This document shows positions 3 through 64,000 of a DNA stretch of 64,000 nt, piece by piece; the stretch's first letter is position 1, and every line of letters begins with the position of its first letter. Both the position numbers and the translations under genes were made by a program. The stretch spans positions 68,921 to 132,920 of the forward strand of contig JAPLLR010000046.1 in NCBI GenBank assembly GCA_026387455.1, in the 5' to 3' direction. A model generated the notes under the pieces. It worked only from the letters and a program-made list of their open reading frames with translations, did not search any database and had not been told where the DNA came from. This stretch comes from Candidatus Omnitrophota bacterium. Lineage in GTDB: Bacteria > Omnitrophota > Gorgyraeia > Gygaellales > Profunditerraquicolaceae.

Positions 3-3000
3 CGCATCGTCCAGAGGTCTGTCGGATTATTCGCCGGGAATACCATTAATGAATATATGGGCGCGATGAAGGACGGCCAATTCGAGCAAGATAAGTACAC
101 CGTCTACAGCTATGAGGACGCTTTCCATGAAGGCCTGGGATTATCCAACGAATCTTCGACTTACGATTACAACGGCGTTCTCTTGAGCACTTCTAGGCTG
201 ATGGGTGTTGACGGCACCCGGCTTAATATAGAGGAAGTCGATTACATGAATGAAGTCATCCGCCGCAAGGATACTGATATCTTCAATAAAGTATTTTCGA
301 TGGAGGTCAGATTATTCGGTCAGGATATTCCTTATCGCGTGATCGAGAATGAGTTTAGTGATCCTCTGCTTGCCGGATTTGGAGTATCCACCAGAAGTAC
401 GGCTACTGATCCGGTATCCGGTATCGTCACTACCGAGACTACACCCGTTGCCCTTGGAGCCGACGCCTTCAATGAATTTGGCGGCGTATCCTTATTAGAG
501 AAGAACAATGTCTTTGACACGCAAAAGATAATTCTGCGCGACGGACGCGGCATGATCCGCAGGGAATATAGCGGAGACGAAGTGGACTACGCCAGGGAGA
601 TCACCGCGGACGTTGTCGTGATCCGCAATTACGAAGACAAGTACTGGAGGGCCAGAGATATCGCTTCGCTTTCCCAAAGGCGCGTCTGGGATAACGCCCT
701 TCAAAGAGATGGTGCGTTAATCAGCACCACTATACCCGAAGGATTCGCCGAAATCGACACCGCTTATGGAAGACTTAAGGTCCTTAAATTAGCCCAGCAT
801 AAGGAAGAGGTAGAGACAGATGCCACCCTTTATGTTCAGACCGCTACTGGTAACACTATCCGTATGCAGGCTGGTGATCGCACCACTGACGTGAAATTCA
901 ACCGCTTAGACGTGGATATAGAAAGCGTGACCGTTAACCCTTCCGGAGAAATTATTGAGACTAGCAAGACCCTGGTCGATGAGGCAACGGGCCTTCCGGC
1001 TGGCAGGAGTCGTGATATCTTTATGCCGGAATATGTTATCGACAGCATGAAAGGCCATATTATCAAGGTGGTCAACAATCCTAATACCGGAGTAGACCAG
1101 TATAGCATTTTGGACGTGGTTACCGGGCTTGTGGATTATATCGGGGTCTACCCGGATATTTTCTCGGGCAGAGTCGGATGGTGGACTACTATCAATTTTA
1201 ATGAGCGCGAAATAGAGGACTCCACGATAACGTTTGCGTTTGAGAGTGGTGTTGAGAAAGGGGTAGTCAAGGAGAGCCAGACTACGGATATCCTGCCTGG
1301 AAAACTGATCAAAAACGAAACCTTCGCTTCCGGAGTGGATTACAGTTATGAGCAGGACGCGCTTACCGGCCTTATTAACAATATCAGGCGCCAGGTGAAT
1401 ATCGGCGATAATCCTATTTGGATGACGGTGATCACTTATGATGATCTGGGTCTTGAAGTATCCCGTCGTACCGAGACCGAGGACGGATTGTTCGTAGATG
1501 ACGCCAGCGTCACCTCAAGAGATACGGCCAGCCGTACCGCTATCAGCGAATATACCAAGGCCAGCGGTGAGACCGGAACCGCTATTATAGACGCTACTAC
1601 CGGTTTGACCATAAGCAACGAGAAGGAAATAGACTTGCCGGAATGCAACGTAAACACTAAGTGGACTACTTATATAACCTATGACGTGTTAGGCAGGGAG
1701 TCAGGCAGAGTTACCAAGGATACAGAGGGCGATATCGTCGTCTCTTCCTGGGGCGCTACTTATGATACAGCGCATCAGACGATGAAAGCCCAATATAGCT
1801 ATGCCAATGGCGAAAAAGGCGTGATGGTCGCGGATGTCCAGAGCGGCCTTACCTTGAACCTGATCCAGGATATAGACTTGATCGGAGCCGGTGCGACAAC
1901 CTGGGATAGTTCTATTAAATACGATAATCAGGGCATTGAGTCAGGGAGGAAGACGGTTGCCGATGACGGTAGAGAAGTCTCCGGTTCTGTCAGAATCAGC
2001 ATGGATCCTGTGGCTAAGACTATTACCAGCAAGTACAGCATAGTCGCAGGCAGGAGTGAAGGTATCAATGTCGTGGATGTCCAGAGCGGCTTGATCGTGC
2101 GTAACGTAGACACCAAGGAAAAGCTACTGCACCAGAATCTTTACGATGAGTTAGGCGTATCCCAGGGTTCTGATAATTATGAAGCCATAGGTGTTTACGG
2201 GGCTAGCGATCTTTATGTACCCGGCACCGGCCTTTCCAAGACACGCTATACTGGTGACCGCATTACTGGCCAGGTGGGCGTAAGAGGAATAGATGCCCGG
2301 GTGGTCGGAGAATATGCTTGGACAGAGAGCGATGATATTGCGGTTATCAAGGCGCAGGAGATAGTCAGGTTAATGGCTGTAGAAAGAGGGCTGCCCGTAG
2401 GGATGTTCAGGGTTCGTCCCAATATCTATAACCACAATCCTGAAATAGCCAGCCTTATCGTCACTGACAAGATTGGCGAAGAGACTGGCAACAAGACTTT
2501 CCTTTTAAATAACGAGTTCGATACCGATTATGCTCTCGGCAGGAAGATTGCTTATGCGGAATTAAACAGGGATGGCGTGAACTTTACGCACTGGCAGAAT
2601 ATCCTTGGTTCTGCCGGATTCAAGGAGCTCTCCGGCGCCCTGGCTGACGTTAAGGTCTTTGATGTGCACATACTCGGGGATGATGAGGATGAAAGGCATC
2701 CCGCCAGGAGCTGGCAGGTAGTTACCAAATACGGTTCAGAGCAGGAGTTAGCGGTTATCGATAACGAAAAAGGCAGTATCACATTCAATATCTATAATCC
2801 GAATTTACGCAAACTTACAGAAAAGGGTAGAGTCGGAGGTATAAGCCTTGCCCTGGATAACGACGAGATCTTAAGCGTATCATATCTCCTAGATAGAAAA
2901 ACGCGCGTGAACAAGGGCGATGGCCGTCCGCAGGACACCGAAAGAGTCTTGATTGTTAAGCCGGTGAATAAGACAGCTTTTGTAGAGTACAGGAGCAAGC

Positions 3001-6000
3001 TCAACGGAGACCTGGAGGCAAAAGAGGATATCCAGTATTTGGGTTATTTTGAAGATGAGGCGTTGCTTGCAAGGCTGCGCACATTAGCAGCAGCATCCGG
3101 AGATATCCGCGTGGCTGCTTCTGAAATCACCAAAGATGCGCAGGTCATCGCTACCGAGAGGGCTTATTATAAAGATCACCCAAGATTATCAGAGGCCCAT
3201 CAGCGATATCTGGGTGTTTCTGCCATGACAGAGATGATCATGCAGGGTAGGGTCATCAGCGATTCCAGGCTTAAGGATATCGTCTTTGGCGACGGCTGGA
3301 TGTGGGTGTCATCCTTAAAGAATGAGAAGTTTGATGATGAGCGCGGCCGCCAGATAAAATATAGCGCGCTGGTAATCAGGGACGGTACAGGTTTAGAATG
3401 CATTAGCGTGCTCGGACATCTGGATAGCGAAGGAAACTTCAGCAGGGGGCCGGGTGATCTGTGCAGATTCAGTTTCTACGATGATATTGATTCCAGGAAG
3501 TACGGCATGCCCTCAAGGACAGTTAGTAGTGTGCCTCTAGGCGACGGACAGGAAAGGCTGCTTTCATCTGCTGACCGCACCATGCTTGACAAGCAAAACG
3601 GCAACATCTCATATATCATCAAGAAAGGCTTCTCCAGTATCACTCTCTCACCGGATTACCGTGATAATTATCTTTTGTTGCAACAGGCAGGCAAGGATCT
3701 TTTCGAGCTGCTTCTGGGGATCTCTTGGGAAGAAAAAGATAGCCGTGGGCGCGTGGTGGTGGCCAAGGAAGCCTGCACGCCAGTAAAATCCGCTTCCAGC
3801 TATGGCTACGAAGCCAGTGATCCAAAATATATCAGTTTTGTTCAATACGACAGCCTACTGGATCCTTATGCCAAAGCAAATCTGGCCTTAAGAGGAGTTG
3901 CCCGAGAAAGTTACACCTATGCTTTTGATCCGTCAAAGAAGGATGTTGCCTCTTATGCCCAATCCCGATTTATGGTGCATAAATATAACCCCAGGCTCCT
4001 GATATTTGAGGGAAACATGAGCGTGGAATATGAGACTGTCAATGGCCTGCCCGGACAGGAAGGGTTGAAGTCTGGTATTTACGACTTAGTCGGTAGTTGG
4101 CTTTATCAGGCCAGATATGAGCAGCCGACATCTAACTACAGCAGGGATCCCGATGCCGCAAAGATAGTAACATACGATCCTTACTGGCCTTTCTATTCTA
4201 TTCCCGTCCGCATCGAGAATGCCAAGGGAGAGGTTATTGAAACTATTAAGAAAACCGAATTGTTGATTGATCCCGAGCTTCCCGCACAGCCGATACTCAG
4301 GCAGGAGCGCAGCGCCAAGAATAGAAATACAGGTTTGGAGGATAGTTCTATACAGTATATCGACGTGATTGCCGGACACCAGGTGATCGAGCCGGTTAAC
4401 GCCAAGCCGTTAAACCTGAATAGCCTGCTTAACGGACAGCAAGGGCAAGCCGTCAATGCCTTGCCCCAGGCAGTAAATACCAATAAATCCACAACATCTG
4501 CGTTGCCTGCCTTCTTTGGCTTTGCCCTGCCTTCCTTCTTCGGTTTCAATGATTTGACCTTATTTGTGATTATCTCCGTCATCGTACTTCTTTACGGACT
4601 CATTCCTTTGTTTTTAGGAACCATCTTGCGTAATAGAGGTAAGAGGAAGATCGCTAAAATTGACATAGAAGCTAACAGATTATGCGGTGAAAAAGTAAAG
4701 GCGTTAGCAGAGGAGCGCCGCGTACTTAAGGTCTTGGGGGTGTTGGGTGCAGAGCCGGATCGAAGACCCGGTCATACCGGCGAATATCAGATTGTGCAGC
4801 GTGACAGGACAAGGGGAGCTACGGATAAGGCTTACCTTGATACAGACAATATTCTCGCTCCCCTGGTATTAAGTGATGGTCCGGTAGATGGTAATTTCAT
4901 CTTCCATATGAGGATACTATATATGTATTTGATGCAGTGGAGAATGCAGGAGAATGGCTGGCAGGAAGATGACCAGCATAACCTGTTGGGAGGCACTGAC
5001 AGATGGCTGAATACCCTGGATGCTTACGCTACTTTACTTTCCTATTATATGCACGTAGTTATCAAGCTGGGCAAAAAAGATGGAATTACCAGTGAGGATA
5101 GCAACCATATCTGGTCGAGGCTGGAGATGTATCTGGGAGAACTTGTGGATGCTTTGCAGCCGTTAATAGAAGAATATCAGCATGGCGGTAATTTGGCGGA
5201 TATCAATCGTAGGATAGAAGCTACGTTGCGCGCCAAGGGTATTGAGCCCCTGGATCATCCTGTATCTATCAATGAATTGAATAGAAGGATATTGGGAGAT
5301 TTTGCGCAGGCTGTCATTGATACTGCTGATATCAGCGTGGCTGATATGGAGCAGATAGTAGGTGACTTGGAATGTAGCGTTATTGTACACAAAGGAACCG
5401 ATAATCGTCTGCGTAAAGTGAATAATTTTGATTTGGATAAATTTCAGCCTTTGATCGCCAATATTTTAGGGGTGAATACCGGGTATATAGACAATGTCCT
5501 GGCAACCTATGAAGAGTTTAAAGAGCGCGAAAAAGCTAGCATAGAGCCGTTCAATCCTATTATCAAAGAGATAGCCATAAGCCTGCCGCACATTTTACTG
5601 GGTTGGTTTGTGGCGCTGATGAGTTTTAATTCCGGGATCCGCGATGCCAAACCGCTCTGTGAATTTATCGCTTCCGTATTAACGAATAATATGCATGGCA
5701 TCCTTATCTTCATTGTTCTACCTTTAGCGATAAGCCTTGTCTTCGGAGCATTCTATTTCTTGAGCTTAAGGGCACGCCACCTAAGGGGCAATAATGATCA
5801 GCCATTTGCTACCAGGGGCGCCTCATTTGATCCCGCACTTTGGAATACCCTGATGCTGGCTTTTCGCTTTATCGCGCTTGCGGCGTTCTGTGCCGGGAGT
5901 TTCTGGCTATACTATAACTTTAGTGATCCTATCCTGGTGGTTACCGCCGGCCCTGCAGCCATGGCAGTCAGAAAGGCACTGTTGTGGACAGCTGTTGCCG

Positions 6001-9000
6001 TAGCAGCCACAGAGCTCTTTACTTTCTTCTTTACCCTGAAGAATGGCGGGAAGCCGGTTTCTCTTATCGGCCTCTCTTTAAGATATCATTCCCGGCTCAG
6101 TGCTCCTTCCGGAGGAGTACGGGGTACGCTAGCCGCAATAGTTTTCTATGCAATACTTTATTTGGGATTTATCTACCTAAGCAAGCTGTTAGGCGTTGCC
6201 AGCTTCAGCATCTTCTTCAGCACGCAATTCCAGTTAGGCAATTACCTGAAATTAATATCCGGCGTACTGATGCTTTTCCTTTCTTTATATCTCTTACGTT
6301 ATGGCGTAGGCACAGCTTGGACAGTAGTCGCCAGCTTCTTGCGCACTTTCCCGATGCAGAGCTTGGCATTGACTTTTGCGATCTTATACCATCTTGCTGA
6401 AGGCTACGGCGTGGCTGAATCCTTAGCCAGCTCTCCTTATGCATGGGTGATAGCTTCAGTTTTAGGTATAGCGATGTTTCTTGAGAACTGGATCAAGGAA
6501 GCCTGCTTCAGGCTAACTCCTCGGCGCACGAAGCCTATTAAACCTGCTACAGAGAATGCAAGGACTATCGGGTTAATATATGCGGGTGGAGATAAATTGC
6601 GTTCACCGGTCTTTTCCGAAGGCTCCGTAGCTAATGCCACCGCCATGCTTCTTGACTGGTTTGACGGGATGAAGGATAGATTTGACTCTAAGCTGCATAA
6701 GACGTTTGAGATTAACCGCCCGGAGCTGGAGCGTATATTTAATCTCCTGCATCAGAGAGAGCTTGCTAGTGGAGCTACTTTGTTCCATCCGGTGCAGTTG
6801 GTTGAGGATGGCGTGGTCCACAACGCTATCATGCCTGACATGGAGGTTATACTTAGACGCCATCGTATCTTGATCGATATCGCCGCTTGCGAAAAGCAGG
6901 ATATCCTGCGCGCCTTGCAGATTAGAAGATGGCTGGTTTCAATGATGAGTGCTGACGCCCATGTCCAGGATAACGGCATCAACCTGGTAGATATAGCACT
7001 GGCTTTTGAGGAATCCGGCATTAGCAGAGAATTGATTATGTACCTTGCCAGCAACAAGTATAATGATACCAGCGATAAACCTTCCCAGGCCAATATCAGC
7101 ATAAATGGAGAATTAGGCCAGAGATGTAAACTTGCTACGCTGATTAATACTATTACTCATGCTAAGGCAGTGGTCTTTTATGACTGGACCGCGTTCGCCT
7201 TTAAGTCCGGTTTCATGATCGGTATGGATCTTATCGAGGAAACACCCGGCCTCAAGCACATGATTATTACGGACAGGAACGCCTGCGTCGGAGACCTGAA
7301 AGCCTTTATCAGAGATGTTGACTATATGCGCACTAATCCTAATCTGGTAGCAATCGTTCCCGGAAGAGGCACGACCTTTACCCGGACTAATATCGGCCAG
7401 GCTTCGCAGTTGATCGAGGAAGGGCACAGGTCGTATCTGCACGGCGTGATGCTCATCGGCGGTCAGGCAGGAGAGGCAGTGGGTACTGGATGGGGTAATC
7501 ATATGCGCGTCTTGTATTCGGAAGCGGTAAATGCGTATCTTACTCCCGGATATCCTTTAAGGCCGCTTACCTCCCATTATAGAGACCAGGGTTTCTACGC
7601 CACTAATTTTGGCGTCCAGGGTTTTGTCCCGCACGCTGTAGGTATTTCCGAGGATATCTGGGCAGTGCAGCAGCAGACTTATTTGTCCATGTCCCTTGGC
7701 CGCGCGCCGTTCTTTACTACCTCTGATGCCTTCTGGCATAAGAAGAGGGAATCCTGGTCTCATCCTGCATGGCTGTCTGCTATGCCGCGCTGGTCCGGCG
7801 GTCTGCCGCAGATGATGCTGGATAAGGTGATGCAGAATATAGGAGATATGGGGCCGCTTTCGTTATATGCCAAGGAAGTCAGGGCGCAGGGCGCGCGCTA
7901 CTTCCTGACCGCACAGTTTGCTTTATTATTCATCTTTCTTAATCCGATTTCTGCCATTTTCGGCTTTTCGCCTTTCCAGGGATTACTGATTTCATTGGTG
8001 ATCTGGGGCGCTGTTTTTAACCAGATTCTTACCGGCCACGGCCTGGTCATGTATATGGAATCAGCCGGCTTTAACAAAGTCACTGCTGTTATAGGCGCAG
8101 GCATATCTCTTCTCATAGGTAAATATTTAATGCCGCTGATCGGAGTCTGGGATCCGACGATGCTGATCTTTGGTATCTTCTTCGGTGGCTTTATCCGTGG
8201 CTTAGGCAGATGGGCCTTTACCCGGGCCCGCGACATGCTCGTTTTCCCCATGCTTCTTACTGTCCATGTGTTGGGGCAGAGAGCCAGGCAGACTCTGGAG
8301 TTTAAGATGTCCGGTGAAGAAAAGACGGATGCTCATGGCGTGGATGTATCAAGCTCTATTACCAAGAGGCCCTGGTATAACATTATCCATCCCGCCTTGA
8401 TATGGTTTATCGGAGTGGTTAATGCCTGGCTTAACATCTATGCTATACTTACTGAGCACCATCTGGCTAATATCCTGCTTATTGCTCCTTCTCTGCTTTT
8501 CTCCGTGGGTGTCGTGGTGGGTATCTTTGTGATGTCTGTTCCCAGAGGAAAGAGCCTGAGGTTCTTCAAATTCGTCCCGCAGCTGGCAGGCTGGCTTGCC
8601 GGATATATGGTCCATCGGACATTGGACGGGTTATTCAAGATGGGTGTCCTTGGGCAACTTCCCGCAGTTATACTGGCATTGATTCTCATCAGTTACTGCC
8701 TGTGGCTGATCTGGCCGAAATCAAATACGCCGCATCACAGCTATTGGACCCGATTTATCTTAGATTTTGGCCGCATGTTCACTCTCTCATTAAGTATCTT
8801 CCTTTGGCCGTTCCTTGTCCCGCACACCCTCGTGATTAACTTCCAGGCTCTAAGCGGATCTTATATGCCGGTGTTTACTTCTGTTTTGCTTACGAAGATA
8901 GCTATTGTCGTCGCGGTATTAATCTTTGGCCAGATATTGAATAAGGCCGTAGGGCTATGTGAATTCCATGCAGTAAACCGGCGCTATATAAAGTGCTCTG

Positions 9001-12000
9001 AGCTCTTTATCCGTTTGAACAACAGTTTTACGCCGTATCAATCCAGCTCTATCGCCGGATTGCTGCAGGATATCCATATTTACATTGATCAGGAGAGCTA
9101 TCGCTACGCGAATGTAGTGCTGCGTAAGGCAGAGAGGGTAATTGCCGATGCCGTAGGTACTCCAAAGAGAGGCATTTTAAGGAGATTCTTCGCAAGCATC
9201 AGGGGTGACACAGTCTATGACCTGCCTGTCTTTACTAGGATTGAGAACGCCAATGAGTACTATAGGCGATCAAGGGCAAATCTTGAATTTGCCGAATGCA
9301 GACTGGAGGATTCAAAAGAGGAATTGGCGGCTGCAAAAACAAAACTTGATGAGGCAGAAATTCCAGCAAATGAGGAGTTACAACGGCTCATTGAAGAAGA
9401 AGGTCCATTACATACGTTGCAAAAAAGAAGAGACCTGCGCCAGGCAGAAGAAAAGCTGGATTCCGCAAGAAAAGATCTAAGGATGGCTTCGGGTGAGGAA
9501 GAAATAAAAGCTGCGGGAGCGCAAGTGGAAGCAGCGAAAAGGAAGGTTGTCAGAGCGCGTAAAGAATTCAAAAACGCATTGAAAGAATCCCAAAAGAGAG
9601 CAAAAGAAGATTACGCTCACAGAAAGAAAGCAGCCAAGGAAATTATAAAAGCAGCCAAGGCAGGCCTTAAGAAAGTCAGAGGGGATGCTTCTGGTTGGCA
9701 AGCGGTGGCTTGCGCAAAAGAGGCGTTAGAGCATGCCCGGCAAGAGAATAAGGATTTAAAGGAAAAGAGCCCGCGTGCCCAGAAAAAAGCAAGAATAGAA
9801 AAGGCCAAGAATGCCCGTAGGCAGGCTAAGGAAGCCCTTAAAGCATACGAGTCCTGGCAGGCATATTATCAAAAAGTGGTGGCTAAGAGCAGAAAGGCAT
9901 TAGCTAGGGCTAGATTAGCTGAACGTCAGGAAAGGAAGCACGCAGAACTTAAAGCCAATAAAGAACATGCCAGCCGTCAGGAAAAAGAGCGTAAGGCCAA
10001 AGAGGCAGAGCGTAATGCCGAGCCAGCTGGAGCCGCTGGTAGAGATGGCGTGACTAGACCTGATGCGCCGTTAGATTCTCCTGTTCAGCCTTCCGCGCCT
10101 TCTTCCGCAGTTCCCAGTCCGGCAGCCGAAGCCGAGATAGAATCCGTACTTTCCCAGATATTAAAAGAATCTCTTCCGGAAGCAACTGCGCCTCCTACGT
10201 TTCTTATGGCAGAGCCAAGAGGCGATGTAGTAGATATCGCTATAAAAAATATTACCGTGCCTGAAGACAGGCAGGATGAGATAAGAAGCAGAATAATGCA
10301 GGATATTGCTGCAGGCCGTATTGTAGTGCTCCTTGATGGTCAGATTATCCCCGCCGAAGATATCCATATCAGGTTTGCCAGCATACATTTTGAGATCGCC
10401 ATCAATAAGCTTGGCAAAACCTCTTTCCGTAAAGCCAAGATATCCTATACTGATGCCTCAGGCAAACAGCAGATTTTAGGGTCAATTAAAATTGATGATG
10501 TTGCTTCATCTGTTAAACCTACCCCGATCAAAGATGCAGCCAGCGCAAAGGCAGCCAGGAAAGCCAAAGCTGATAAGGAAAGGCTGGCCAGGGAAGCGGA
10601 GGCTTTAAAGAAAGCTGAAGAAAGAAGAATAGCTAAAGAGATAGAGAAGAAATCCGTAAGAGAAGCGGCAAATAAAGCTAGGGCTCAGGCTATCTTCCTT
10701 AGGGCTCAGAGGACGCAGCAGATACGCGAGGCATTCAATAAAAAGCTGACTATTGCCAGAAGCGCATTTTCTTCTTTCAGGCGCGCCACAGCACTTCGCT
10801 GCGTTTCATTAGTCCATCTTGTAGGGGATAATCTTGCCAGTGCCAGGAAGGCTTATCAGGAAAGATCTGCCAGAGTCAGTGCCCAGAGGAGAGAGCTTGC
10901 GCGGGTAGAGATATTACTGCGGCAGATCGCTGCTGCAGAGAGGCCCGAACAGATCACTGATGAATTATTAAACAGTAAGAATGCGAAAGTTGCGGAAAGA
11001 GCCAAGGATAGAAAACAAGTTTTACTCATAGAGCGGGTTAGGCGTGCGATGAAAAATGAGCAGCCTGCCTATAGTGGAACAAGAGGTTTTTCCAGTGCAC
11101 CTCGCAGGCAGCAGGCCGAGGTTACTCCTGTTCCTGAGCCGATAGCAGAGCCGGAAAACATCAGGCTAGATGATGGTAGATTCAGTATCGGCGCCAGAGT
11201 TTGGTACGTGCCTTATTCTGGGAAAATCGAAGAGGTCGTGATATTAAATAATGATTTGGAACATGCGGATGGCTATATGATAAGAGTTGGTCTGCGCGGT
11301 TCTATGGGGCCGTTTGATCGCAACCGCTTTTTTGCCACCAGAGAAGAGGCAGAGGAATTCTTCCGCAAAGAACATTCTTATCCTGCTTGCATGATTCCTG
11401 TCGAGGCTGCTGAAGCCCTGACTGAAACAGAGTTTAATTTCATCAGGAGCTTATTCGGTGCTGCCGCCTTGGATATGCTTGCCCAGCACCGGATACACTT
11501 AGATAGGTTCAATGTCAGGGTTGACGCCACCCTCCAGGTTCCTGCTGAAGTCAGAGACGGCATACTGTATGTGCATCCCAACATCATCCGGGGACCTCCG
11601 CAGGAACTGGAAAGAATAAGAGTCCACCTTGAGGTCATCTTTGCCGGACATGAACTCTATCATCTGCTCGGCGAAAATGAATCTCAAGCCAGAAACCGCA
11701 CCATCCAGTATCTCTTTAAGGACAAGCCCGTATTTAAGAACGAGCTTTTATCCAGCCATATACGCTTCCTGAAAGGCGATAATTCTCTTGGTCTAATAGG
11801 CGATGAAGGTTGGATTTCTCGCCTGGAGGCCGCTGTTTCAGTTGTCCACGCCTCAAAGTGGAATTTGAACTCTTACAATAAGACAATAGGGCGTTACCTG
11901 CCCGGAGGAATTCCTTCCGAAGTCGCCAGGATGACAGGGGTGCCGCCAGAAACAATGATGCAGGAGCTGGTAAACGATATTTATCTTCCCTTGCGTTCAG

Positions 12001-15000
12001 CGCTTGGTTATATTGCGCAGCATATTGAGGCTGGAGATATCAGGCCCGATGTCAGGCTGCGAGTTGCAGAGAGTGATCCTGAGGCCTACGTACCCGATGA
12101 TTTGCGCACTGGTAGTCGACCTATACGCGTGGGCTTCCTGCCCATGAAAGGTGATCCCTGGCAGGTCGGCCACATCTTTGTTATCTTGGAAGCCGTAGCT
12201 AAATTAAAACTGGATAAAGTAGTGGTCATGATTGATAATTCTGATCCTATCCGTAAACCGAACTTAACCTCTTTAACCGTACGGGAAGCCATAAGTAAGG
12301 CCTTGTTCGCGCATCTGGGTTCGTTAGTGCAGTATACAGCTATAACCAAGGAGCACGAAGAGCTTTTTGCCGTCGATGGAGAGACCGCGATTTTCAAGTT
12401 TATAAGCTTAAATAATAAATTGCCTGAGAACACTTCTCTTGAAGTTTATTATATGGTTGGTTCAGATCATCGTCATTGGGAAGTTAAGAAGAAGCATCCG
12501 CAAACCGACGCAGAAATAACTTTACCTGACACCCCGCAGAAACTTATTCTTAATCAGCTTCCTGAGCCGGATGTTATGAAGCGCTGGCCGGCACTTCAGG
12601 GAAATCACTCCGGTCTCTATGGCTATCAGCAAGGCATAAGCCCCACTGTTAATATACTTTTCATAGAGCGCATCGGAGAAGAATTCAAAAAAGATCAAGG
12701 CGGCAAAGAGGTTGAGTTGGAAGCCTTGGTTGAAAGCGTAGGAAAAAATATCGGCCACATCGCCAAGATATTCCAACCTATGGATACATCATCTACCCGT
12801 GTCAGAAAACAGTATCATTACTGGACAGTTCCCTGGGATATATTCCTTTTCGCCAGGGCATTTAAACTTTGGGGATTTGAAGATTCATTTGTTCCTGGAG
12901 AAAAAGGTATTAAATGGTCAGAGCAACAGAAGGCAGTTGCCGAGGGATTATGTGGATTTATTAATTCAAATGATTTTCCTGCAATAGAAGCAAAATTGAA
13001 AGAAGCCTATGGCCCGGCAATGAATATTTTTGATATGTTCTTGATGCAAGCGATAAACCAGTCCGAGATACCGGATAATAAAGAGCGTTTTGAGAAAATA
13101 CGCGGATTAATTTTTGCCAGAGGCGAGGAGTTTGTGGGAGAGGTTGTAGGATCTGCGGATGCGCAGTTAGATGAGGCTCAGAGGGAAGTATCCCCGGACC
13201 TTAGCACCAAAGACGCTTCCCATGAAGAAGGTAGCTCGTTTTGCGCAATTGCTCTTATGCCCGCATTATTGATTGCAGCAGTGGTAATCCTGGGGATACT
13301 GGTGGTTTATTTCTCGTTCAGGCTTCGCGCGATTAAAGACAAATTAGCAAAATTAAATTCAATTTATGCTGCACAAACAAAGGAGGCAGAATGTCTACCT
13401 TACTCGAACTTGGGCAGGGACTCGAAGTCACTCATATCCTCTCCCGTCCCTACGGACTCCTCATCTATGCCAAGTACCCCTGCTGGTACTCAGAGTTCAG
13501 TTTCCTCCTCAGCCCAGACGGCACCATCAGGGGAAAGACTCATGACGGAAACTGGTATGAGATCAGCTCCGAATTCTCCGATATCATCAAGGCCAAGGTC
13601 AATAGCGTCCTTATCTACGAGCGCAACCGGTTCTACGGATAACAGCTGTCAAGGAGACCGTTCTTCAAGCGGCCTTCCGGATGAAAAAGTGGATGCCGCA
13701 ATTGAAGAATTTGGCGGAATGGAAAGTATCTGGAATCTGGGCAAAATCAACGATGCGGATTGGTTATCTGTGCAGGTTATTGGCTTAGGGATGCGCGATG
13801 CCGCACGCAACTTGGACGCCCCCAATTTCAATGCTATTGCTAGGCTCTTAACAATGCGCGGGGTGCATTTTGCACTTGCTCCTGCGAGATGGAAGATTGG
13901 TGCCTGCATAGGATTCCTCAATGACCAGCCCATCATTATTATTCCAAAAGATGTCACTTATCAGGAAGTTGCCCTTGAAATCCAGGCAACAATAGTCCCC
14001 GCATTAACCCACAAAGAAAACCTAAAAATTGACAGTTTGCAAGGTCGCCTTTATGCGCTAAGGGATAGAGATTTAGTAAAGCGCATTGAGCAGGTTAAAG
14101 AAGGCATCTTCGGTACAATCAGAGACCGTAGTTCAGGGAGCGTGGTTTCTGGTTGCTATCTCCAGCCGCAAATTGCCAATAGGGCAGGCACCCGCGCTTT
14201 TATTTATGTTAAAGAGAAAACGCTTTCTTCCATGCGGCTGGTAACGGCCGCAGAACAAAGCCGTCTATCCACAAATAAATCCTATCCGGCTATCATGCCC
14301 GTGGAAAATCTTCCGGAAAGAGAGCCTCGGCCGGAAGAGTTAAATATAATTATTTCTGCCTTTGGCGGAAGTGATGCGCTTTTGGCCAAGGGAATCAATA
14401 TGAATGTAAGGATAAATCCGGCCCTGGAGTCCCCTGCTGAAGTAAGAAATGTCGTATTACATGTTAACCCCCGCATTTTAAGAGCGCCGCCCGAGCAGTT
14501 AAGGGTTATCTTCGAAGGCCACGAATTATTCCATCTGCTTCATCCGCAGGAACCCGAATCAGCAGCCAGAAATTATACTGTCAGTTACCTCCTGAAGAAC
14601 GGTCCTGCGTCACTTCTTAGCCATATCGGATTCTTAAATTGCAATTCATTAGGCATTCAGATTAAACACTCTCAAGAGTGGTTATCTGAGCTTAGGCAGG
14701 CTTTGGGCGATAAGTTTTATCCAGCCGAAATGGTGCCATCAGCCGGCCAGATAGAGGATATTACAGAAAAAGAATTAAATACGCTCATAGATCTTTTTGG
14801 TGGACACCATACAGGAATTACCTTAACTAAAGATAATGTCAAATGCTATTCTGCGCTAGATGTTCCGGCAATAATCGTAGGTGACATTCTCTACATACAT
14901 ACCGATATCATAAGAAGCACACCGGAAACACTGAGGGCATTTGGAGGGCAATTAAATCTTATTTTCAAAGACCATATGTTTTTCTACTTGGCCTTTCCTG

Positions 15001-18000
15001 AAGAAAGTAGGCAAGATGTATGGCTGCGCACCATTAGCGCGATCTTAACCGAAGATCGCTATACCCAGCTGGAAAGTCATATACGTTTTCTATTAGTTAA
15101 CCCTCTAAATCTTGCGCCCCATAAGGAGTGGTTGGACTACTTAAGGGAAGCCTTAGTCAGATATACAAGGCAGGATGTCGAACCACGAGCCTTAACAGAA
15201 TCGCCTTTTAAGCAGTTTCTTTTAGATAAAACCAGAACTAATCTGCGAGAGCGGGTTTCAAAGGGCAACCTTAGTGAGCCCATAATTTTGTTTGAAGGAG
15301 AAAAAGATAATCCGGTTGAAGAGACATTGCGTGATGAGGTGATGTTGGTGAGAATAGGTAGGGCACTTCACCTTGAAGACGCTCTTGTAAACATTCTGCG
15401 CCCGATACTTAATATGTACGAAGGAAAGGCAGAGGTGGTGTTTACTTCCATGCCCAAACACTATGGTGCAACTGAACAGCATGCATTCAGCGCTCTCATG
15501 GAAAGAGTATCCGCGAAACTAAATATGGCGTTTATCAACGAGCAATTTTATGAAACAAGAAACCGCCCTGCTATGGGCACCTTCCCTTCGGCAGATCCTG
15601 ATGTACGCAGGGAGGCATTTATATACACAGATAAAACCGGCCAAAAGAGATGCATAGTTGAATTCGACAATTCCGGAAAGGTGGATATAAATGGAAAGGT
15701 GGTTATACTGGTTGATGATGTGCTTACCAGCGGTACCACCATGCAGGTCTCAAAGGATGTGCTGCGTAATGCCGGCGCAAGAGAGGTTATTCCCATAAGT
15801 TTGTTGAAGGCGCCTGCGTGGCATGCCTTGTGGGAAAAGAATGAAGCTAAGCGCACTATCCGTAAATACGTCTTGAAGCTTGAAGAGATACAGGATTGGA
15901 GAGGGGCAACCATGTCCTTAAAGACAATTCTAGATGAGCTAGAGGTGGAAGATGAAGTTATCTCTAGAGTTCTGGATAACCTAGCAATGAATCATGAAGA
16001 TCGGCGGCAGATTTTAAGCGGGCTGGGCACTCTTCTTTATACGGGTGATTTTCGCTTCAGCGCGAAGTATAAGCCAGTTCCTAGTTTAGCGAAAACAGTT
16101 GAGGTACAAAACCTTGATCCGGGATTGTTTTCATTTATCCATGGCATCCTGGATTTAGGAAGGTATTGCGGAACTAAAGGAGAATGGGCGCTTTTGTTCC
16201 ATACCGTAAAATACGATGAAGCTACAAAAACCTTCTTGCCTGGCAAGGAAGATATACTTACTACCCTGCAAACTATTTTAGAGAGCGATAAATTATTAAA
16301 ACCCATACTTCGTCCCCTTATTGATGTGGTAATAGATTCCAAGAACAAGCTAGAAAAGGAACATGATAAATATATGAGGTTGGCCTTGATCCTGAGTACT
16401 CTGGAAATGACAAATGAGTTAATCAAATATTTTATGGTGTTTCTCGAGGAGTATAATCCAGAGATTCAAGAAGTTGGCATATGGTCGTTAACCGAGCAGA
16501 TTGCAAGACGGTTGGATCAGATAGACGTGGATGAAAATATCAAGAAAGAAATCTTAAGGCGCCTTAGACATCTGGGTGTATGGACCGCTCCGGGTAGGTA
16601 TAGTTTTATTAGGTCACTCTTGCGCCGCCTGAACCTGGGTGTTTATATTAAGGAGGTTAACCGTATACGCAGGGAATACCAGATATACGGCTTATCCGAA
16701 TTTAGGACTTTTGAAGATGCGCAAAGACTGTTGAATAGCGTGACGCGGTTGTGGTGTACTGGCTTTAGAGCACTGCTTACAGAAAGGAAACAGCCGATTC
16801 CTGAAAAAGTAATTGCTATTATTGCTCAATGGATAGCGTGCGGGGGAGCATTTAAGATCCTTAGCTCCGGCTCGCTAGCAGGCCTGATAAGGGATGGTTA
16901 TAATAATATTGTATCGGATATTCGCTTGGAGTTAGCCAGGCAATTAGCCCAAAAGAATATTTCCCCGGATATCGATACCCCTGAAGCTTATATTGAAGAG
17001 CTGATGAGCTTTAGTATGTCCAATAGCGCAGAGAATTATACCATAAATGATGCCAGTGCAGTCGGATTGGAAGATCCTCGCCAGCTGCAGCTGAGATTAC
17101 CCTGCCCGGGTATACCGGTATCAGAAGCGGATAGAGTCCAGGCCATCTTCGAAAAACATGGGCTTAGGCTTCTGGCTAAAGATAGCCCTCAACAGATATT
17201 AGCGCAGAGTCAGAGTCCCATTGTTGTCGCGTTCTTCCTCTCGCGCGAAAAAGAATTTGAGAGCTATGCGGAATCATTGGTATTCCAAGATCTGGTAAAT
17301 GATGAGCTGCAAAAGAAAACCTGGGGTCTGTTTAGGCCGAGAAGATACGATATGCAGATAAGATGGCTTGGCGGCACCGAACAGAAGTATAATGCATATA
17401 TAATCATTGAGAATGGCCAGAACGGCGATAAAAAGAGAGAAATGATTGAGAAAATCGACGGCATAAAAGAAGAATTTATGCAGCATCTGCACGTTTTTTA
17501 CACGGGCGATAAGCCTTGGCTAGAAGAAAGAGACGGAAGCAGGGGTGACGACTACTCTGTATTTAAGTTTATGAGAGATAGGGCTGCCGAAATGGAAGCT
17601 TTTGAATCGCACAGTCCAGACCTAACCGTGAATATCATAGCCGGCATACTACATGTTATTTGCGAAGCGGAAGGATTCGATTTAAAGGCACTGCAGCCTA
17701 GCAGTGTTTTGCCGCAAGGACATCTGAATGACAAATCGCCTTCTGAAGAAGCAGCTACAGAACAAAGATTTGTTCATTACCCCAAAATATTGATAGCTGA
17801 TGATGAGTATCGTAACAGAGAGATGCTGGTTAAGCTTTTAAAGAGAAAGGGTTTTTCTGAATTTGGCACAGCAAGAGATGGGTTTGAGGCCATAGAAATC
17901 TTTCGCAAAGCTAAAGAAGAAGGAAAGCCATATGATATTGCAATTATTGATATCATGATGCCGAAAATGGACGGTATGGACCTGGCCAGACAACTAAGGG

Positions 18001-21000
18001 CTGAAAAACCAGACATCTATATCTTCGTATATAGCGCCATTTCCAACGAAGAACCACTTAGGAAATGTTTAGCAGAAGGACTATTTGATGGGATTTATAG
18101 CAAGCCAAGCTGGGATATCGTGGGTGCTTTGCATGGCGTAACTCTGCTTTTGCCTACTGTTGGCATGAGAGACAAATTTCTATCTCTCATGACGGCGAAA
18201 ATGCATAAACGTTCTATTGAAGAGATTATTTTACCCCTATCTCTTGTCCAGGAAGTATTAAATTCAGATCCAGAGCTAAAAGAAGCAGCACGCAATATCT
18301 TTGTGGCAGAGGGACCGGGGAAAATTTATTATGTCCTCAAGCCAGGTCTTGGAGGTATTCCGATATTGGAGGTGAGAGCAGGCCAAGAGGAGATGGTGGG
18401 AGGACTGATCACAAAATGCGAGCGTCTGGAAGGAGGAGCACAATCTCTGCCAGGCGTAAGCTTAGATTTTACCTTTTTTGCTTGGGCATTAGAATCTAGC
18501 TTAAGCATTGCAATATTTATTATATTAGCTTATCTAATCGCCTGCTATTATAAACAGAAGATACTGGATTCTTCTCTCACCAGCCGTGCTCCGCCATTTG
18601 TCCGGAAGACACTTAATTCCTCACTCATAGATTTACCCTCCATAAGTATGAGGAACAGTGTTTCCCTTTCCTCCCTACGAAACATCTCAAGTGAAAAACT
18701 TCAACATCTGTCCGCCGCATTGCTAATAGTAATGGGTATTGGTATGTTAATTTTCGCGGCATTTGGCCTTATAGAGCCGCTATCTTCTCTTACCGCATTC
18801 AGTTCACCTCTTCTGTTTGGTACAATTTCCCAAGGCCCTGCGCAGAAAGACGATGTAGAAATGGTGATATGGAAGGCAAAGTCTGCTGTGCAGTTAATGT
18901 CAGGGTACACCCACGATCTTAATAATTGCCTGCAACCCCTTATATTCTCAATCAGGTTTTTAGGAGAGTCCCACGGCAAAGAATCTGAGGCAGGAAACTT
19001 GATAAGGGGATTACATGAAGAGTTCGTTACCTTACGCAAAATTTTACAACCGCGTCCCATAGAAATAAATGCGGAGAATGCCGCAGATATACTAGCTCAG
19101 TGCCGCGACTTGGCAAAGAGACTATCTGCCTGGGGGAATAACCTTGATGAAAACGTTTTTATTTCCAAACTGATAAAGGTCCTACAGGTGGAAAGCCTGA
19201 ATCAAGAGCAGGAAGAGTTGATAGACCACATCAGAATTAGTATCAGGGATCTTAAGAAGCTAATACAGAATCTGGTAAGTTTTATGAGAGGTTCACCGTA
19301 TCTAGACCGGAATGAAGAGGTAGACATTAACCAGCTGCTAGAGAGGGTGACTCGGGATCTGTGTAAAGATGTAGAAATACAGTTATCTCTTGCCGAGAAT
19401 CTGCCGCATATCCGAGGCAACAGTGCTGAGTTGAAGAACGCATTTACGAACCTCATTCAAAATGGCATTGAAGCATTCCTTTATTCTGATATTCCCATTG
19501 AAAAACCGAATCTTATATGCGTTGGCACGAAGCTTTCCGCAGATCAAAAGCACCTTGAAATCGAGATAAAGGATAACGGGTCAGGGATCAGCAAAGAGGT
19601 TTTACCGCATATTTTCGAGCCCTGGCTTACTACAAAAAGCGGAAAGAGCGTAAAGGGCGGAAGGGGCGGAACTGGCATTGGGCTTACTATAGTCAAAGTA
19701 GTCGTTGAGTCTTACGGTGGTACAATTTCTGTGGATTCTTCCTACATAGGTAGCTGCCCGCAATTCCACGGAACCACCTTCACCATCCGCTTGCCGGTTA
19801 CGCAAACCCAGGTGAGAAACCCTGACTTGTTAGAAGAAAAGTCTTCTTCCGTATCAGGATTAAGCATAGGCGGATTTATATCTAAGGAAGCGTCCCCGGA
19901 CCGTAGCGCTGACAAAGACCAAGCCTCTACCCGCACCGACGAGCCGCTTGGAATGGCGGGAAGGATTATTAATTTAAGGGAGGTGGCAAAATGTCTATCT
20001 TACAGGACTTTGAAATCAGCCATGTATTACCTAAGCAGGATCACGTTATTGTGTATATCAAGCATCATTTATGGTGGAAAGAGTATTGTTTCTTGGTTTA
20101 TTCAGACGGCAGAGTCAAGGGAAAGGCCGGCAGCGGCCTGTGGCTTGACGCCAGCGAAGAGCTTAAGGCTATTCTCATCGCTAAGCTCAGGTCCCTTTAT
20201 ATTGAAAAGCGGAGTCTTATCTACCAGTAATTTGCTGGAATCTTGGCCGCTGCGGAATCAAACAGGAAATGGACTACCTTCCGTGGCTGGTGGGGTCCGT
20301 TCTCCTGCCGCAGCGGCCATAATTTTAATCTTTGTCGTAGGACTATTTCTCGCCGCGCTAGGAAATGTCGATGCCTCATTATACGCGGCGATAGGAGTTA
20401 TTGTATCCGGCCGCTCTGATAATGATAGGGCTAGCATTCTAGAGCAGGAATTACTGCGCGGCATAGAAGAGAGGACTCCCGCCCAGATCAAAAATAACAG
20501 AATGATAGATTTGACAACTACGGGAGAATTTAAGATTACACTCACACGGACGCATCTGGATGATTTTGATGAGAAGGATAACCCTGAGGGTCTGGGTTTA
20601 AGAAAATGGTTTGCCAAATACAGAAAGGAAGCGGAGATTTCTACCGCCGGTATCCGCGGTAATCAGAATATTAGCTATCCTCAGGATACCCGACCGCAAT
20701 ATCCTTTGCATCTTTTTGCTATTATGCTGGCTACTTTGGCCAAGGCAAGAGTAGCTAACAGCAAATATCCTGACAGAAGATTGCATAAGATAGCCGCTTC
20801 CGAGGTAAGGTATAACTCTCCGGCATTTGTAGAATTGATTGCCAGGATCCAGGCGCAGGAAGGCATAACCACGCATACGGTTAAAGATTATCAGACTATG
20901 CCGATATGGATGGTTTCTTTCCTGGCTTTCATGCTTGATTTTATCGGCGCTGAGTATGTGACTGCCAGCCACGCCATTGCCACTTTTATCGCTACCAAGG

Positions 21001-24000
21001 ATATCAATAATCAGGGAAGCCAGTACCTGCCCGAGGAATCCCTCGAGTTCGTCACAGAGATAGAAAATATTTTCAATATTATAGAAGAGCAGGGCAGCTA
21101 TACGATTACTATCGCGGCCAAAGATAACCCTTTGATCGACACCGGCCTTCTTTCGCAACTGGAAGACGGCATACAGCTTTATGTTGAATATTTAAGAAAA
21201 GGCGTTGCTACTACTGCGAATCTCGAGAGAATCAGGGGTATGAAAAATCCGGTGGTTGTTGATTGCGTGGGCGGATGCATGTACCGGACCATGTCCAGGA
21301 TCTTTAAGCATCTCGGCATCGACCATAAAATAAAGTTCCTGCATGCAACTGAAGATTCCTTCTTCCACGGCGTAGGCAAGCTCGATACTAACCCTAAGAC
21401 CGGAAACCGCGAGTTCTATGATCTATCGTGTGACTTAGCGATGACTAAGTTCAACAAGAAGACGCAGCAGGTCATCCTCCCCGTAGTGGAAATGACCGGC
21501 TATAGTGAACTTCTTAAAGACTATCCGGTGGGAACGGTGTTGTTGATGACTGACCCGGATGGGGACAGGTTAGTCACCGCCCAGATAGAATCCGCTAGCC
21601 AAGTCTCTTACTTACAGCGCCAGGGAATAGCATATATTGATATGGGTGGTTCACGGGTATTGGCTGTTTATACGCCAAACCAGTCGTTCCTTATGACAAT
21701 CGCCTATCAAAAGAAGGCGTTGGAAGAGGCCGGGCTATGGAATAAGTTCAACTGGTTTATGATAAAGACCACGCCTTCTTCAAGGGCCTGGCTTGAATGG
21801 GCAAAGAAAAACGGGGTGCCGGTAGTGGAAGTTCCGGTTGGTTTCAAGGAGATCGCCTCGGTATTAAGAAAAGTAGAATACAGCCTAAGAGAGAATCCCG
21901 GCAAAGATGTGGTCATCACCGATATTTACGGCAACGATATTAACTTAGGGAACAATCCCCGTCTACTTTTTGGCGGCGAGGAGTCAGGTGGGGAGATCTT
22001 TGGCCCGGCGGAGTTGATCAAGAGCGTAAACGGAAGATTGATTCTTGCCATGCGGGAAAAATCTGCCGGAGAGGCGATGGTGGTCACTTCGGCTTTGGCC
22101 GCATACGCTCAAAGCCGTGATCAGACTTTATCTCTCTATCTCCAAGAGATCTTTGAGGAGAATCAGATTATTTCACGGTTTGATTACCGTGCGGACGTCA
22201 TATATTTTAATCCTAATGAGAAAGATCCGCAGAAGCTTTTAAGTGAAATAGATGAAGGCTTGAAGATAAGAACCAAGAACGATACCTATTTTTTGAGTAT
22301 CGCTTTAGCTTTAAGAAGCGGATTGATCAATATAGGACAGGCCAGGGCTATTCTCAAAGAGGCGTTCAGCGAGCTGGATTTCACCAACTTAGAGGATATC
22401 CTGTTTGTGGGAGATGGCACATACCTTGTATTTAGTGATAAGTGGGTCGAGATAAGGCCGTCCGGGACAGAGGCAAAGAATAAGGGTTATGCCGGAGGCA
22501 CAAGCCTGATGGACTGCGTCAATTACTCAGAGAGGTTATCCAATTATTCCGGAGAAAGAAACAGTCTGCACGCGCAATTTATAAACGAAGGTTTATATAC
22601 AGAAGTAAAAAGCAGGGCAAATAAGATTTTCCAGGATTTTGCGCAAAAAGACGGTGATCCTCAAGGCTTCCAGCCGCCTGTTGATACGGAATATCTCACT
22701 CAATCCACTTCTGGTATGGATCGCTCTTCAAGAGGCCTTGCGGATGAGGCAGTGGATGCTGCAATTGAAGAGTTTGGCGGCACAAAGAATATCTGGAACC
22801 TGGGCAAGATTGACAATTGGATGTCGGTGCAGGTTATCGGTCTAGGCATCCGCGATGCCGCACGCAATTTAGACGCTACCAACCCTAACGCCATTGAGAT
22901 GCTATTGAGGGCGCGCGGGGTGCATTTTGCCCTTGCGCCTCCGGGATGGAAGATCGGTTCCTGCATCGGTTACCTCAATAATCAGCCCATCATTATTGTT
23001 TCAGAAGACGCTACGTATCAGGAAGTCGCCCACGAAATCCAGGCAGTACTAGTCCCCGCGTTAACACATAAAGAAAACCTAAAGATCGACAGCTTACAAG
23101 GCAGGCTTTATACGCTAAGAGATAGATATTTAATAAAGCGCATTGAGCAGGCCAAGAGAGGTGTCTTCGGAGAGATCAGGGATCGCAGTTCACGCAGCAA
23201 GGAGGGTATATTTCCGGGCTCGCCGATGCGAAGAGTCAAGCTGCTTCCTGCCGCGCAAGTTGAGCAGTTCAAGAAAAGAATTCTTGCTGCTCCGTATCTT
23301 TACTCCAGATTTGAAATAGCAGAACCCAAAGTACAAAGAGAGTCTACATCTACTCCCGTAAGATTCAAATGGAACCTGTTTGAAGAAGAGATAATATGCA
23401 TTGGTCAGCACGATGTAGAATTAATGCAAGAAGTGGCGCAGGCAGCCGAGTTCTTGCGCGCGCATATAGGAGACTTAAAGGAGGATCTCTCCGGCTTACG
23501 CGGTTACTATCAGCTTGATATAGAATTCCCCCACGAATTATACATAGAATTTACCAGCAAGTCAGATGCCGCAGCAAAGTTAGACACGACAGGCAGGTCA
23601 CTTATTGAAATTAATTGGTCGATAGTAAGAGATGATCTGCCTTTCAGGGCCAGAATTGAGCTGCTGGATAAGATTTTCTACTGCGCATATCCGCAGCGCA
23701 ATGTGCATAATCTTGTCGATCAATATTTTATCTCCCATCATGAGCACAGAATCAGTTTTATTGAGACTCTCTCTAAGATCTCCCTTGCTGAGGAGCCGCT
23801 ACGCAACTGGCAATATGCTTCTTCTATTATAGAGAAAAGTAAGGCAGTTTTTGTGCTCCTGCCAGTTAACAATGCCGCGGATAAACTGCCTGCCTGGTTT
23901 AAGAGAATGCATGAAGAGCTGATGAAGATGCCCAAAGATTTCCATTTTGAAGTGATTGTTTGCGATAATGGCTCAACTGATTCTACCCGCAAAGCGGTGT

Positions 24001-63998: not shown

Positions 63999-64000
63999 AT

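Follow-up and report, generated by a model that had tools for sequence, protein, structure and literature searches.

Evidence for a small-protein gene embedded out of frame in a giant multi-enzyme open reading frame of an Omnitrophota bacterium

The nested reading frame and its host

The DNA considered here, a 64,000-nucleotide (nt) stretch of contig JAPLLR010000046.1 from a Candidatus Omnitrophota assembly (GCA_026387455.1; hereafter the window), is traversed from end to end by one stop-free open reading frame (ORF). Wholly inside this giant host ORF, and one nt out of phase with it, lies a complete ORF for a protein of 83 amino acids (aa), referred to as copy 1, which is preceded by its own Shine-Dalgarno (SD) sequence. 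A second, related ORF, copy 2, stands in the same frame relation to the host further along the window. The coordinates of these features are collected in Table 1.

No other ORF in the window, in any frame, exceeds 186 codons. The giant frame contains about 20 different Pfam families, arranged as a mosaic of enzyme, kinase, and signalling domains. These include a phosphoribosyltransferase, a response-regulator receiver (Response_reg), HATPase_c, phosphoglucomutase domains I–III, GT2, starch synthase, three protein-kinase (Pkinase) segments, a metallophosphoesterase, Glu/Leu dehydrogenase, glucosamine-6-P isomerase, PAS, and sigma-70 region 4. Hydropathy defines 44 transmembrane (TM)-like segments scattered through the protein. 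In length, in its many distinct Pfams, and in its scattered TM helices, the host matches the "multi-enzyme metabolic cluster" class of Omnitrophota giants, which a preprint describes as ORFs of at least 10,000 codons with many Pfams, none of them dominating, and TM segments (bioRxiv 10.64898/2026.06.07.730766). Neither the giant ORF nor a close relative was found in a 5.8-billion-cluster protein database, among GTDB representatives, or in JGI contigs. A term search of that preprint, of bioRxiv 10.1101/2023.11.21.568195, and of the wider literature returned no mention of nested genes in Omnitrophota giant ORFs.

A preliminary description of this DNA had reported an 83-aa, non-low-complexity ORF in the −1 frame, wholly within the giant ORF and 4 nt downstream of an SD. 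The coordinates, the SD sequence, the complexity of the product, and the frame relation (frame 2 inside a frame-3 host) all proved correct on re-examination. In the host frame the SD of copy 1 reads ..AAG GAG G.., or Lys-Glu, and the host peptide across the small gene reads CLPYSNLGRDSKSLISSPVPTDSSSMPSTPAGTQSSVSSSAQTAPS... The description had also characterized this peptide as a Ser/Thr/Pro-rich linker; that holds for copy 1, where these residues make up 51% of the peptide versus 15% of the whole giant ORF, and does not hold as a general trait, the other copies having 20–40%. The length of the copy 1 open stretch is by itself only mildly unusual: from stop to stop it covers 13337–13642 (102 codons), third by length among 1,739 stretches, in a frame whose stop density across the window is 0.082 per codon. 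Over the whole plus strand, off-frame ORFs of more than 30 codons are opened by a strong SD and ATG at two sites only, 13391 and 19991.

The second of these sites is the start of copy 2, which was located by a tblastn search of the window with the copy 1 product (34% identity, E = 2.7e-14). It follows the C-terminal end of the histidine-kinase ATPase domain (HATPase_c), and the host peptide read through it contains 30% Ser+Thr+Pro, so it is not dominated by these residues. Local alignment of the small-frame translations of the two copies scores 144 (z = 27 against shuffles), versus z = 4.7 for the host-frame translations of the same DNA. Nucleotide identity between the copies by small-frame codon position is 0.49/0.62/0.44, and the least conserved position is therefore the second position of the host frame. 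A six-frame search with a hidden Markov model (HMM) revealed neither a third copy in the window nor a copy fused in frame within the giant protein.

Codon usage also distinguishes the two small genes from their surroundings. When sliding windows were scored by codon-usage log-likelihood, with the host frame as training set, 25 of 2,130 stood out. Runs of several windows in which another frame outscores frame 3 occur in three places only: at each of the two small genes, with frame 2 in the lead, and in one TM-rich stretch. Across the overlap, codon usage is better in the small frame than in the host frame. The same scan picks out the small genes of two related loci introduced below, L005 and L007. 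Candidates of other kinds were examined and rejected as genes: the third codon-usage anomaly (8613–8822), its counterpart in L005 (17733–17942), and further off-frame open stretches of 80–158 codons in frame 2 (5927–6400 and 8471–8839) are all TM-rich host sequence with no SD and ATG. All of them are most probably artefacts of the composition of hydrophobic coding DNA.

Table 1. Positions of the nested genes, their signals, and their host in the window, with the standalone loci of the same family
Feature	Position	Strand	Remarks
Host ORF	3..64000	+	frame 3; at least 21,332 codons; no stop; runs off both window ends
Small gene copy 1	13391..13642	+	frame 2 (−1 of host); ATG 13391 to TAA 13640-13642; 83 aa
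SD of copy 1, AAAGGAGG	13379..13386	+	spacer of 4 nt (CAGA) to ATG
Host-frame (frame 3) read-through of copy 1	13392..13640	+	83 codons; stop-free; non-conserved; Ser/Thr/Pro-rich linker
Predicted TM helix of giant protein, FCAIALMPALLIAAVVILGILVVYFSF	13239..13319	+	hydropathy only; ends 24 codons 5' of copy 1 ATG
Small gene copy 2	19991..20230	+	frame 2; ATG start; 79 aa; paralog of copy 1; same frame relation to host
SD of copy 2, GGGAGGTG	19978..19985	+	GGAGG 7 nt before ATG
Predicted TM helix of giant protein	20307..20369	+	26 codons 3' of copy 2
Standalone L003			83 nt 3' of the true stop of a giant gene of >6,803 aa
Standalone L008 (two tandem copies)	9416-9691 and 10001-10270		contig JAFGQU010000002.1 of a Candidatus Omnitrophica metagenome-assembled genome (GCA_016935525.1)
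Standalone L016-18			ordinary gene neighbourhood

A family of small proteins

An HMM built from the two copies finds 52 matches at E ≤ 1e-3, 13 of them at E ≤ 1e-10, among 1.84 billion representative proteins. Nearly all are 71–105 aa long and align end to end. In an alignment of 48 family sequences, W55 is invariant and F38, G44, and G48 are kept in at least 90%; the net charge of the small proteins is about neutral. AlphaFold2, supplied with the family alignment, returns a model with a mean predicted local distance difference test score of 85 and a predicted template modelling score of 0.70, in which five predicted beta strands are followed by a C-terminal helix at residues 60–82. On the comparative sequence evidence, the ORF at 13391–13642 appears to be genuinely protein-coding and to belong to a family of ~80-aa proteins that had not been described before, with a putative ribosome-binding site of its own.

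Searches for known relatives were otherwise unproductive. Pfam, NCBIfam, and Rfam gave nothing meaningful for the small gene, a word-indexed search of 5.8 billion clusters gave no match to its product, and pattern scanning based on the alignment of both copies brought up neither a relative nor the window itself in GTDB genomes or JGI metagenomes. The sole result of a second GTDB scan, L002 from Litorilituus, is a spurious match of 16 residues. Foldseek returned no significant match to the model, and the predicted fold has no confident known relative, the XRCC4/PAXX head domain and the polo-box fold being among the candidates. Residues 43–75 faintly recall a motif of the RecA C-terminal domain (G-x-W...E...I..KV..L). 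A relationship to that domain is not supported: single RecA chains give non-significant E-values of 0.17–0.97, low values arise only where several RecA units are artificially fused in one chain, and no stretch is significant by itself.

One family member, P0023, is annotated as Candidatus Omnitrophica (GCA_016935525.1). Together with the domain architecture of the host, this points indirectly to Omnitrophota as the source; the window itself contains no marker gene. The longer members were considered as functional clues and discarded. P0039 (148 aa), in which a family N-terminus is joined to an aldehyde-dehydrogenase C-terminus, is probably chimeric, and P0059 and P0047 are over-extended at the N-terminus. 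P0043 (142 aa) begins as a family member and then apparently continues in the host frame; its ..FRGWWDSS.. resembles the sequence 3' of the small gene in L007, which could reflect an insertion or deletion or a natural merger of the frames. A weakly resolved neighbour-joining tree pairs the two window copies with each other and shows nested members mixed among standalone ones.

DNA was recovered for 15 members, 11 nested (win1, win2, L001, L004–L006, L007, L010–L012, L013, L014, L015, L019, and L020) and 4 standalone. A long host ORF passes through the small gene in all 11 nested loci; relative to that gene it is +1 in every case, and it never contains a stop there. It usually runs off both contig ends and fills the entire fetched locus of L005–L006 (20.2 kilobases (kb)) and of L007 (15.7 kb); the hosts of L005 and L007 are multi-enzyme mosaics too. 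The four standalone members contain 2–5 stops in the +1 frame and have weak SDs. The tandem paralogs of L008 lie ~2.3 kb 3' of a 2,310-aa gene, with Y1 transposase and formyltransferase genes between.

Initiation at the internal start codon

The nested copies carry uniform initiation signals. GGAGG precedes the ATG in all 11 nested genes, compared with 5 of the 31 ordinary genes in their neighbourhood (Fisher p = 1e-6), and the SDs of nested copies are stronger than those of standalone members. The spacing from GGAGG to ATG is 4 or 7 nt in the nested copies and never 5, 6, or 8, an outcome with a chance of ~2e-5 if spacing were free. Because only these two spacings occur, the SD always falls in a single phase, which the host reads as xxG GAG Gxx, with Glu at the central codon. 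The start regions of nested copies are on average less structured than background (mean z = +1.05).

The invariant phase is also what would be expected if the small ORF were reached by a programmed −1 ribosomal frameshift near the internal SD, so that it would encode a C-terminal domain of a truncated giant protein released at the TAA. The dnaX gene makes its gamma product by such a shift, and an SD-like element stimulates −1 shifting there. In all 11 nested loci the small ORF is indeed in the −1 frame, with an SD-like element always just 5' of it, in the same phase and 4 or 7 nt away. However, no slippery heptamer of the form X XXY YYZ lies between SD and ORF in copy 1 (..ACA AAG GAG GCA GAA TGT..) or in copy 2 (..AGG GAG GTG GCA AAA TGT..), nor is there one in the other nested copies aligned at the ATG. 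Met occupies the first aligned column in 39 of 48 family sequences, and ATG is the start codon of all nested copies read at the DNA level. The standalone homologs begin at that same Met with no upstream ORF in any frame, and the distance from SD to ATG is the optimum for initiation. A frameshift is for these reasons an improbable account of the locus, and initiation at the internal ATG is the preferred one.

Two further roles for these signals were entertained and dropped. SD-induced pausing for membrane targeting fits poorly with TM helices that lie 5' of the small gene in some copies and 3' in others, and a prfB-like +1 frameshift at the stop of the small gene finds no conserved shift-prone codon or SD before the stops.

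AT-rich stretches with an ATTAAT/TTAATT-like motif recur 10–35 nt 5' of the SD in several nested copies, at 13340–13370 and 19960–19975 in the window and in L007, L010, L019, and L020. They could be A/U-rich translational enhancers or the −10 element of an internal promoter. A scan for sigma-70 promoters and terminators around both window copies gave counts no different from those in shuffled sequence, and a TTAGCA-15 nt-TATGCT arrangement 5' of copy 1 was not counted as a promoter, its spacer being short.

Selection in two frames

The two frames of the overlap carry different records of selection. Among the nested loci, pairwise BLASTP (E < 1e-3) matches the small proteins in 55 of 55 pairs, at a mean identity of 37%, and the overlapped host-frame peptides in 14 of 55. 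The host flanks match in 0 of 36 pairs upstream and 1 of 55 downstream. L004 and L005, which are near-identical contigs, differ once within the gene, by a substitution that is synonymous in the small frame and replaces Gly by Glu in the host frame. These comparisons establish long-term purifying selection on the amino-acid sequence specified by the small frame, as read from the alignments, and a host peptide that is not conserved in sequence yet is kept open. The preliminary description had proposed a genuine second gene with its own initiation signal, dual-coded with a degenerate host frame, and the family comparison supports that proposal. Orthologous loci that retain the giant frame and lose the small ORF or its SD were to count against it; all 11 related nested loci keep the ORF, the ATG, the GGAGG, and the open host frame. 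The per-frame constraint that it had asked about resides, by amino-acid conservation, in the small frame and not in the host frame, in the z scores of the two window copies as in the BLASTP pairs.

A gene that was swallowed by fusion into the giant ORF and is no longer expressed, so that only the host read-through matters, would leave a relic of similar appearance. Standalone family members exist, the nested copies sit at host module boundaries, and the giant ORF resembles a string of once-independent genes, with a single standalone protein (P0001, described below) that matches two successive host pieces. A dead frame would, however, quickly gain stops, at the density that frame 2 has elsewhere in the window, and would lose its ATG and SD. 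The 11 nested copies, although diverged to ~37% identity, have kept all of these, together with the W/F/G core, while their flanks have diverged beyond recognition; the stronger SDs of nested than of standalone members also run counter to decay. The relic is about as improbable as the frameshift, and an expressed small gene better fits the record.

Selection on the host frame was assessed by resampling synonymous codons for each small protein, in nine nested members. Between 3 and 6 host-frame stops are expected per gene and none is observed. Taken gene by gene, the probability of a stop-free host frame lies between 2e-4 and 2e-2, with 8e-4 for copy 1 and 2e-4 for copy 2; multiplied over all nine it comes to about 1e-25. 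The host frame has been purged of stops; read-through of the giant ORF is therefore under selection as well, which amounts to true dual coding.

This result bears directly on the proposal that the giant ORF is here really two large genes with the small one as an ordinary cistron separating them, the opening of the host frame being due to chance or to an assembly artefact. Some loci do look this way: the L003 member follows the true stop of a giant gene, the host frame of L013 ends 236 codons after the small gene, and on short contigs gene callers choose the small gene over the host frame. The resampling probabilities nonetheless exclude a chance opening, and the same layout is seen in assemblies made independently of one another and drawn from ENA, JGI, NCBI, and Logan. 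Sequencing errors break long ORFs and do not create them, and without an in-frame stop no known mechanism ends the upstream translation. Separate cistrons are thus slightly less credible again than a relic or a frameshift.

That copy 1 is simply a random off-frame opening after an SD-like motif can be dismissed almost entirely, even though off-frame stretches of comparable length occur elsewhere in the window and AGGAGG appears 24 times on its plus strand, given the paralog, the 52 database homologs, the codon-usage signal, the confidently predicted fold, and the TM-rich character of the other long stretches, which have no SD and ATG.

Modules and repeats in the giant frame

When 667 aa of the host around copy 1 were compared with the 5.8 billion clusters, a single weak, partial match was obtained, to P0001, a standalone 512-aa JGI protein with a signal-peptide-like N-terminus. 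P0001 matches two successive host pieces, 12615–12890 and 13011–13170 in the host frame: its C-terminal end is 46% identical to the host, and after a further ~40 residues the host resembles a portion of its N-terminal region. The giant ORF has the appearance of an assembly of head-to-tail copies of once-separate genes that lost their stops.

The giant protein contains two copies of a ~170-aa module that matches nothing in Pfam, at 13635–14141 and 22698–23198 (host frame). Its copies share 70–82% amino-acid identity and 76.5% nucleotide identity over 145 nt. The first begins directly after copy 1; the second follows the phosphoglucomutase domains and has no small gene before it. More diverged internal repeats, at 25–46% identity, are found at 11376–11702 / 14280–14579 / 14718–15011, at 999–2105, and at 42957–44111 / 55413–56690, the last pair being ~380 aa long.

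Proposed origin and mechanism

Copy 1 can be taken with good confidence to be a gene that lies wholly inside the giant multi-enzyme ORF and one nt out of phase with it, for which we infer internal initiation and a partner role for its product. In the proposed mechanism, a 30S subunit would bind the internal SD on the giant mRNA, start at ATG 13391 in the −1 frame, and stop at TAA 13640–13642, so that the 83-aa product would be released on its own into the cytoplasm. Ribosomes engaged on the giant frame would pass through the same nucleotides and make of them a disordered juxtamembrane linker. The small protein may then work with the giant protein as an accessory subunit, an assembly factor, or a ComS-like regulator, and its encoding within a very long mRNA would tie its synthesis to the giant chain in place, time, and amount.

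Several observations weigh against this account or temper it. The start region of copy 1 is itself no less structured than background (z = −0.12), and the internal SD would be covered by ribosomes that are translating the host, which may affect how efficiently initiation occurs there. The association with membrane segments is modest, a TM helix lying within 30 residues in 6 of 11 nested copies (p ~ 0.01) by a crude hydropathy scan. The window and close orthologs of the exact locus are absent from every collection searched and, because orthologous loci were not found, all comparisons are with paralogous or distant family members.

The history of the overlap can be partly reconstructed. The preliminary description had the small gene overprinted on the host; the direction was probably the reverse. 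The small gene is probably the older frame, since standalone members exist, codon usage is better in the small frame, and the host peptide is both unconserved and compositionally biased; a growing or fusing giant ORF probably came to span it, in a reversal of classical overprinting. A gene that arose de novo by overprinting was considered and rejected in view of the standalone homologs (L003, the two of L008, and L016) and of small-frame codon usage that is not the poorer of the two. The invariant phase of both the host frame and the SD suggests a single origin of the nested state with later spread by duplication. The fixed phase of the SD may reflect either common descent or a constraint.

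A more far-reaching possibility, which is speculative and rather less likely than not to be correct in full, is that the family forms an ancient, single-origin module. It would then lie systematically in the −1 frame at module and membrane junctions of Omnitrophota giants, invisible to gene callers and internally initiated, and would be needed in cis for making or operating polypeptides tens of thousands of residues long, for example as a co-translational assembly or quality-control partner. If true, no out-of-frame nested gene with such deep, family-wide conservation would have been known before in cellular organisms, and this one would offer a handle on how giant proteins are made.

Comparison with known systems

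Several properties that characterize a same-strand embedded gene are found together here, insofar as sequence can reveal them: a complete ORF in another frame, an initiation signal of its own, and selection on both frames. To our knowledge, well-supported same-strand dual coding over ~250 nt is rare outside viruses, and most claimed bacterial overlapping genes that we know of have been described from a single genome. Here each frame bears a separate, quantifiable signature of selection over 11 independent sequences, amino-acid conservation in one and purging of stop codons in the other, so that for a cellular genome the support for dual coding is unusually strong. A whole protein family is hidden by standard gene calling, its members surfacing mostly on short contigs where no giant ORF is called. 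The locus also offers a picture of how giant ORFs may form, with a pre-existing gene spanned in another frame rather than deleted. It provides, moreover, a small and tractable candidate partner for the giant proteins of uncultured Omnitrophota, through which their synthesis, assembly, and regulation become experimentally approachable.

The closest parallel in a cellular gene is comS of Bacillus subtilis, which reportedly lies inside srfAB. In both cases a small gene with its own ribosome-binding site is set out of frame, on the same strand, within a very large gene for a multi-modular enzyme, and expression of the embedded gene is tied, or here would be tied, to transcription of the large one. 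The two differ in that comS is single, taxonomically narrow, only 46 codons long, and overprinted on a conserved nonribosomal peptide synthetase domain, whereas the gene described here belongs to a diverse family with standalone members, is present in at least two copies in one host, and lies over a non-conserved linker. The host, too, differs from srfAB, being one ORF whose length exceeds 21,000 codons, and a regulatory role for the small protein is proposed by analogy.

In viruses, complete same-strand, alternative-frame genes of which both products are made include Rz1 within Rz, the phage lambda spanins, and B within A and E within D of phiX174. The products of Rz and Rz1 are physical partners, the relationship that we infer by analogy for the small protein and its giant host. 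These are compact genomes, for which coding economy is the usual rationale, whereas the present case concerns a cellular gene of exceptional length, in a setting where space is evidently not limiting, and the host-frame sequence is merely kept open rather than conserved.

Ribosome profiling assisted by retapamulin or Onc112 is said to have revealed out-of-frame internal starts in Escherichia coli genes. Like the nested genes of the giant ORFs, these consist of an SD and start codon inside an ORF that lead to a short out-of-frame product. The E. coli products are mostly very short and poorly conserved, in contrast to an 83-aa protein that is predicted to fold and belongs to a family held together at ~37% identity.

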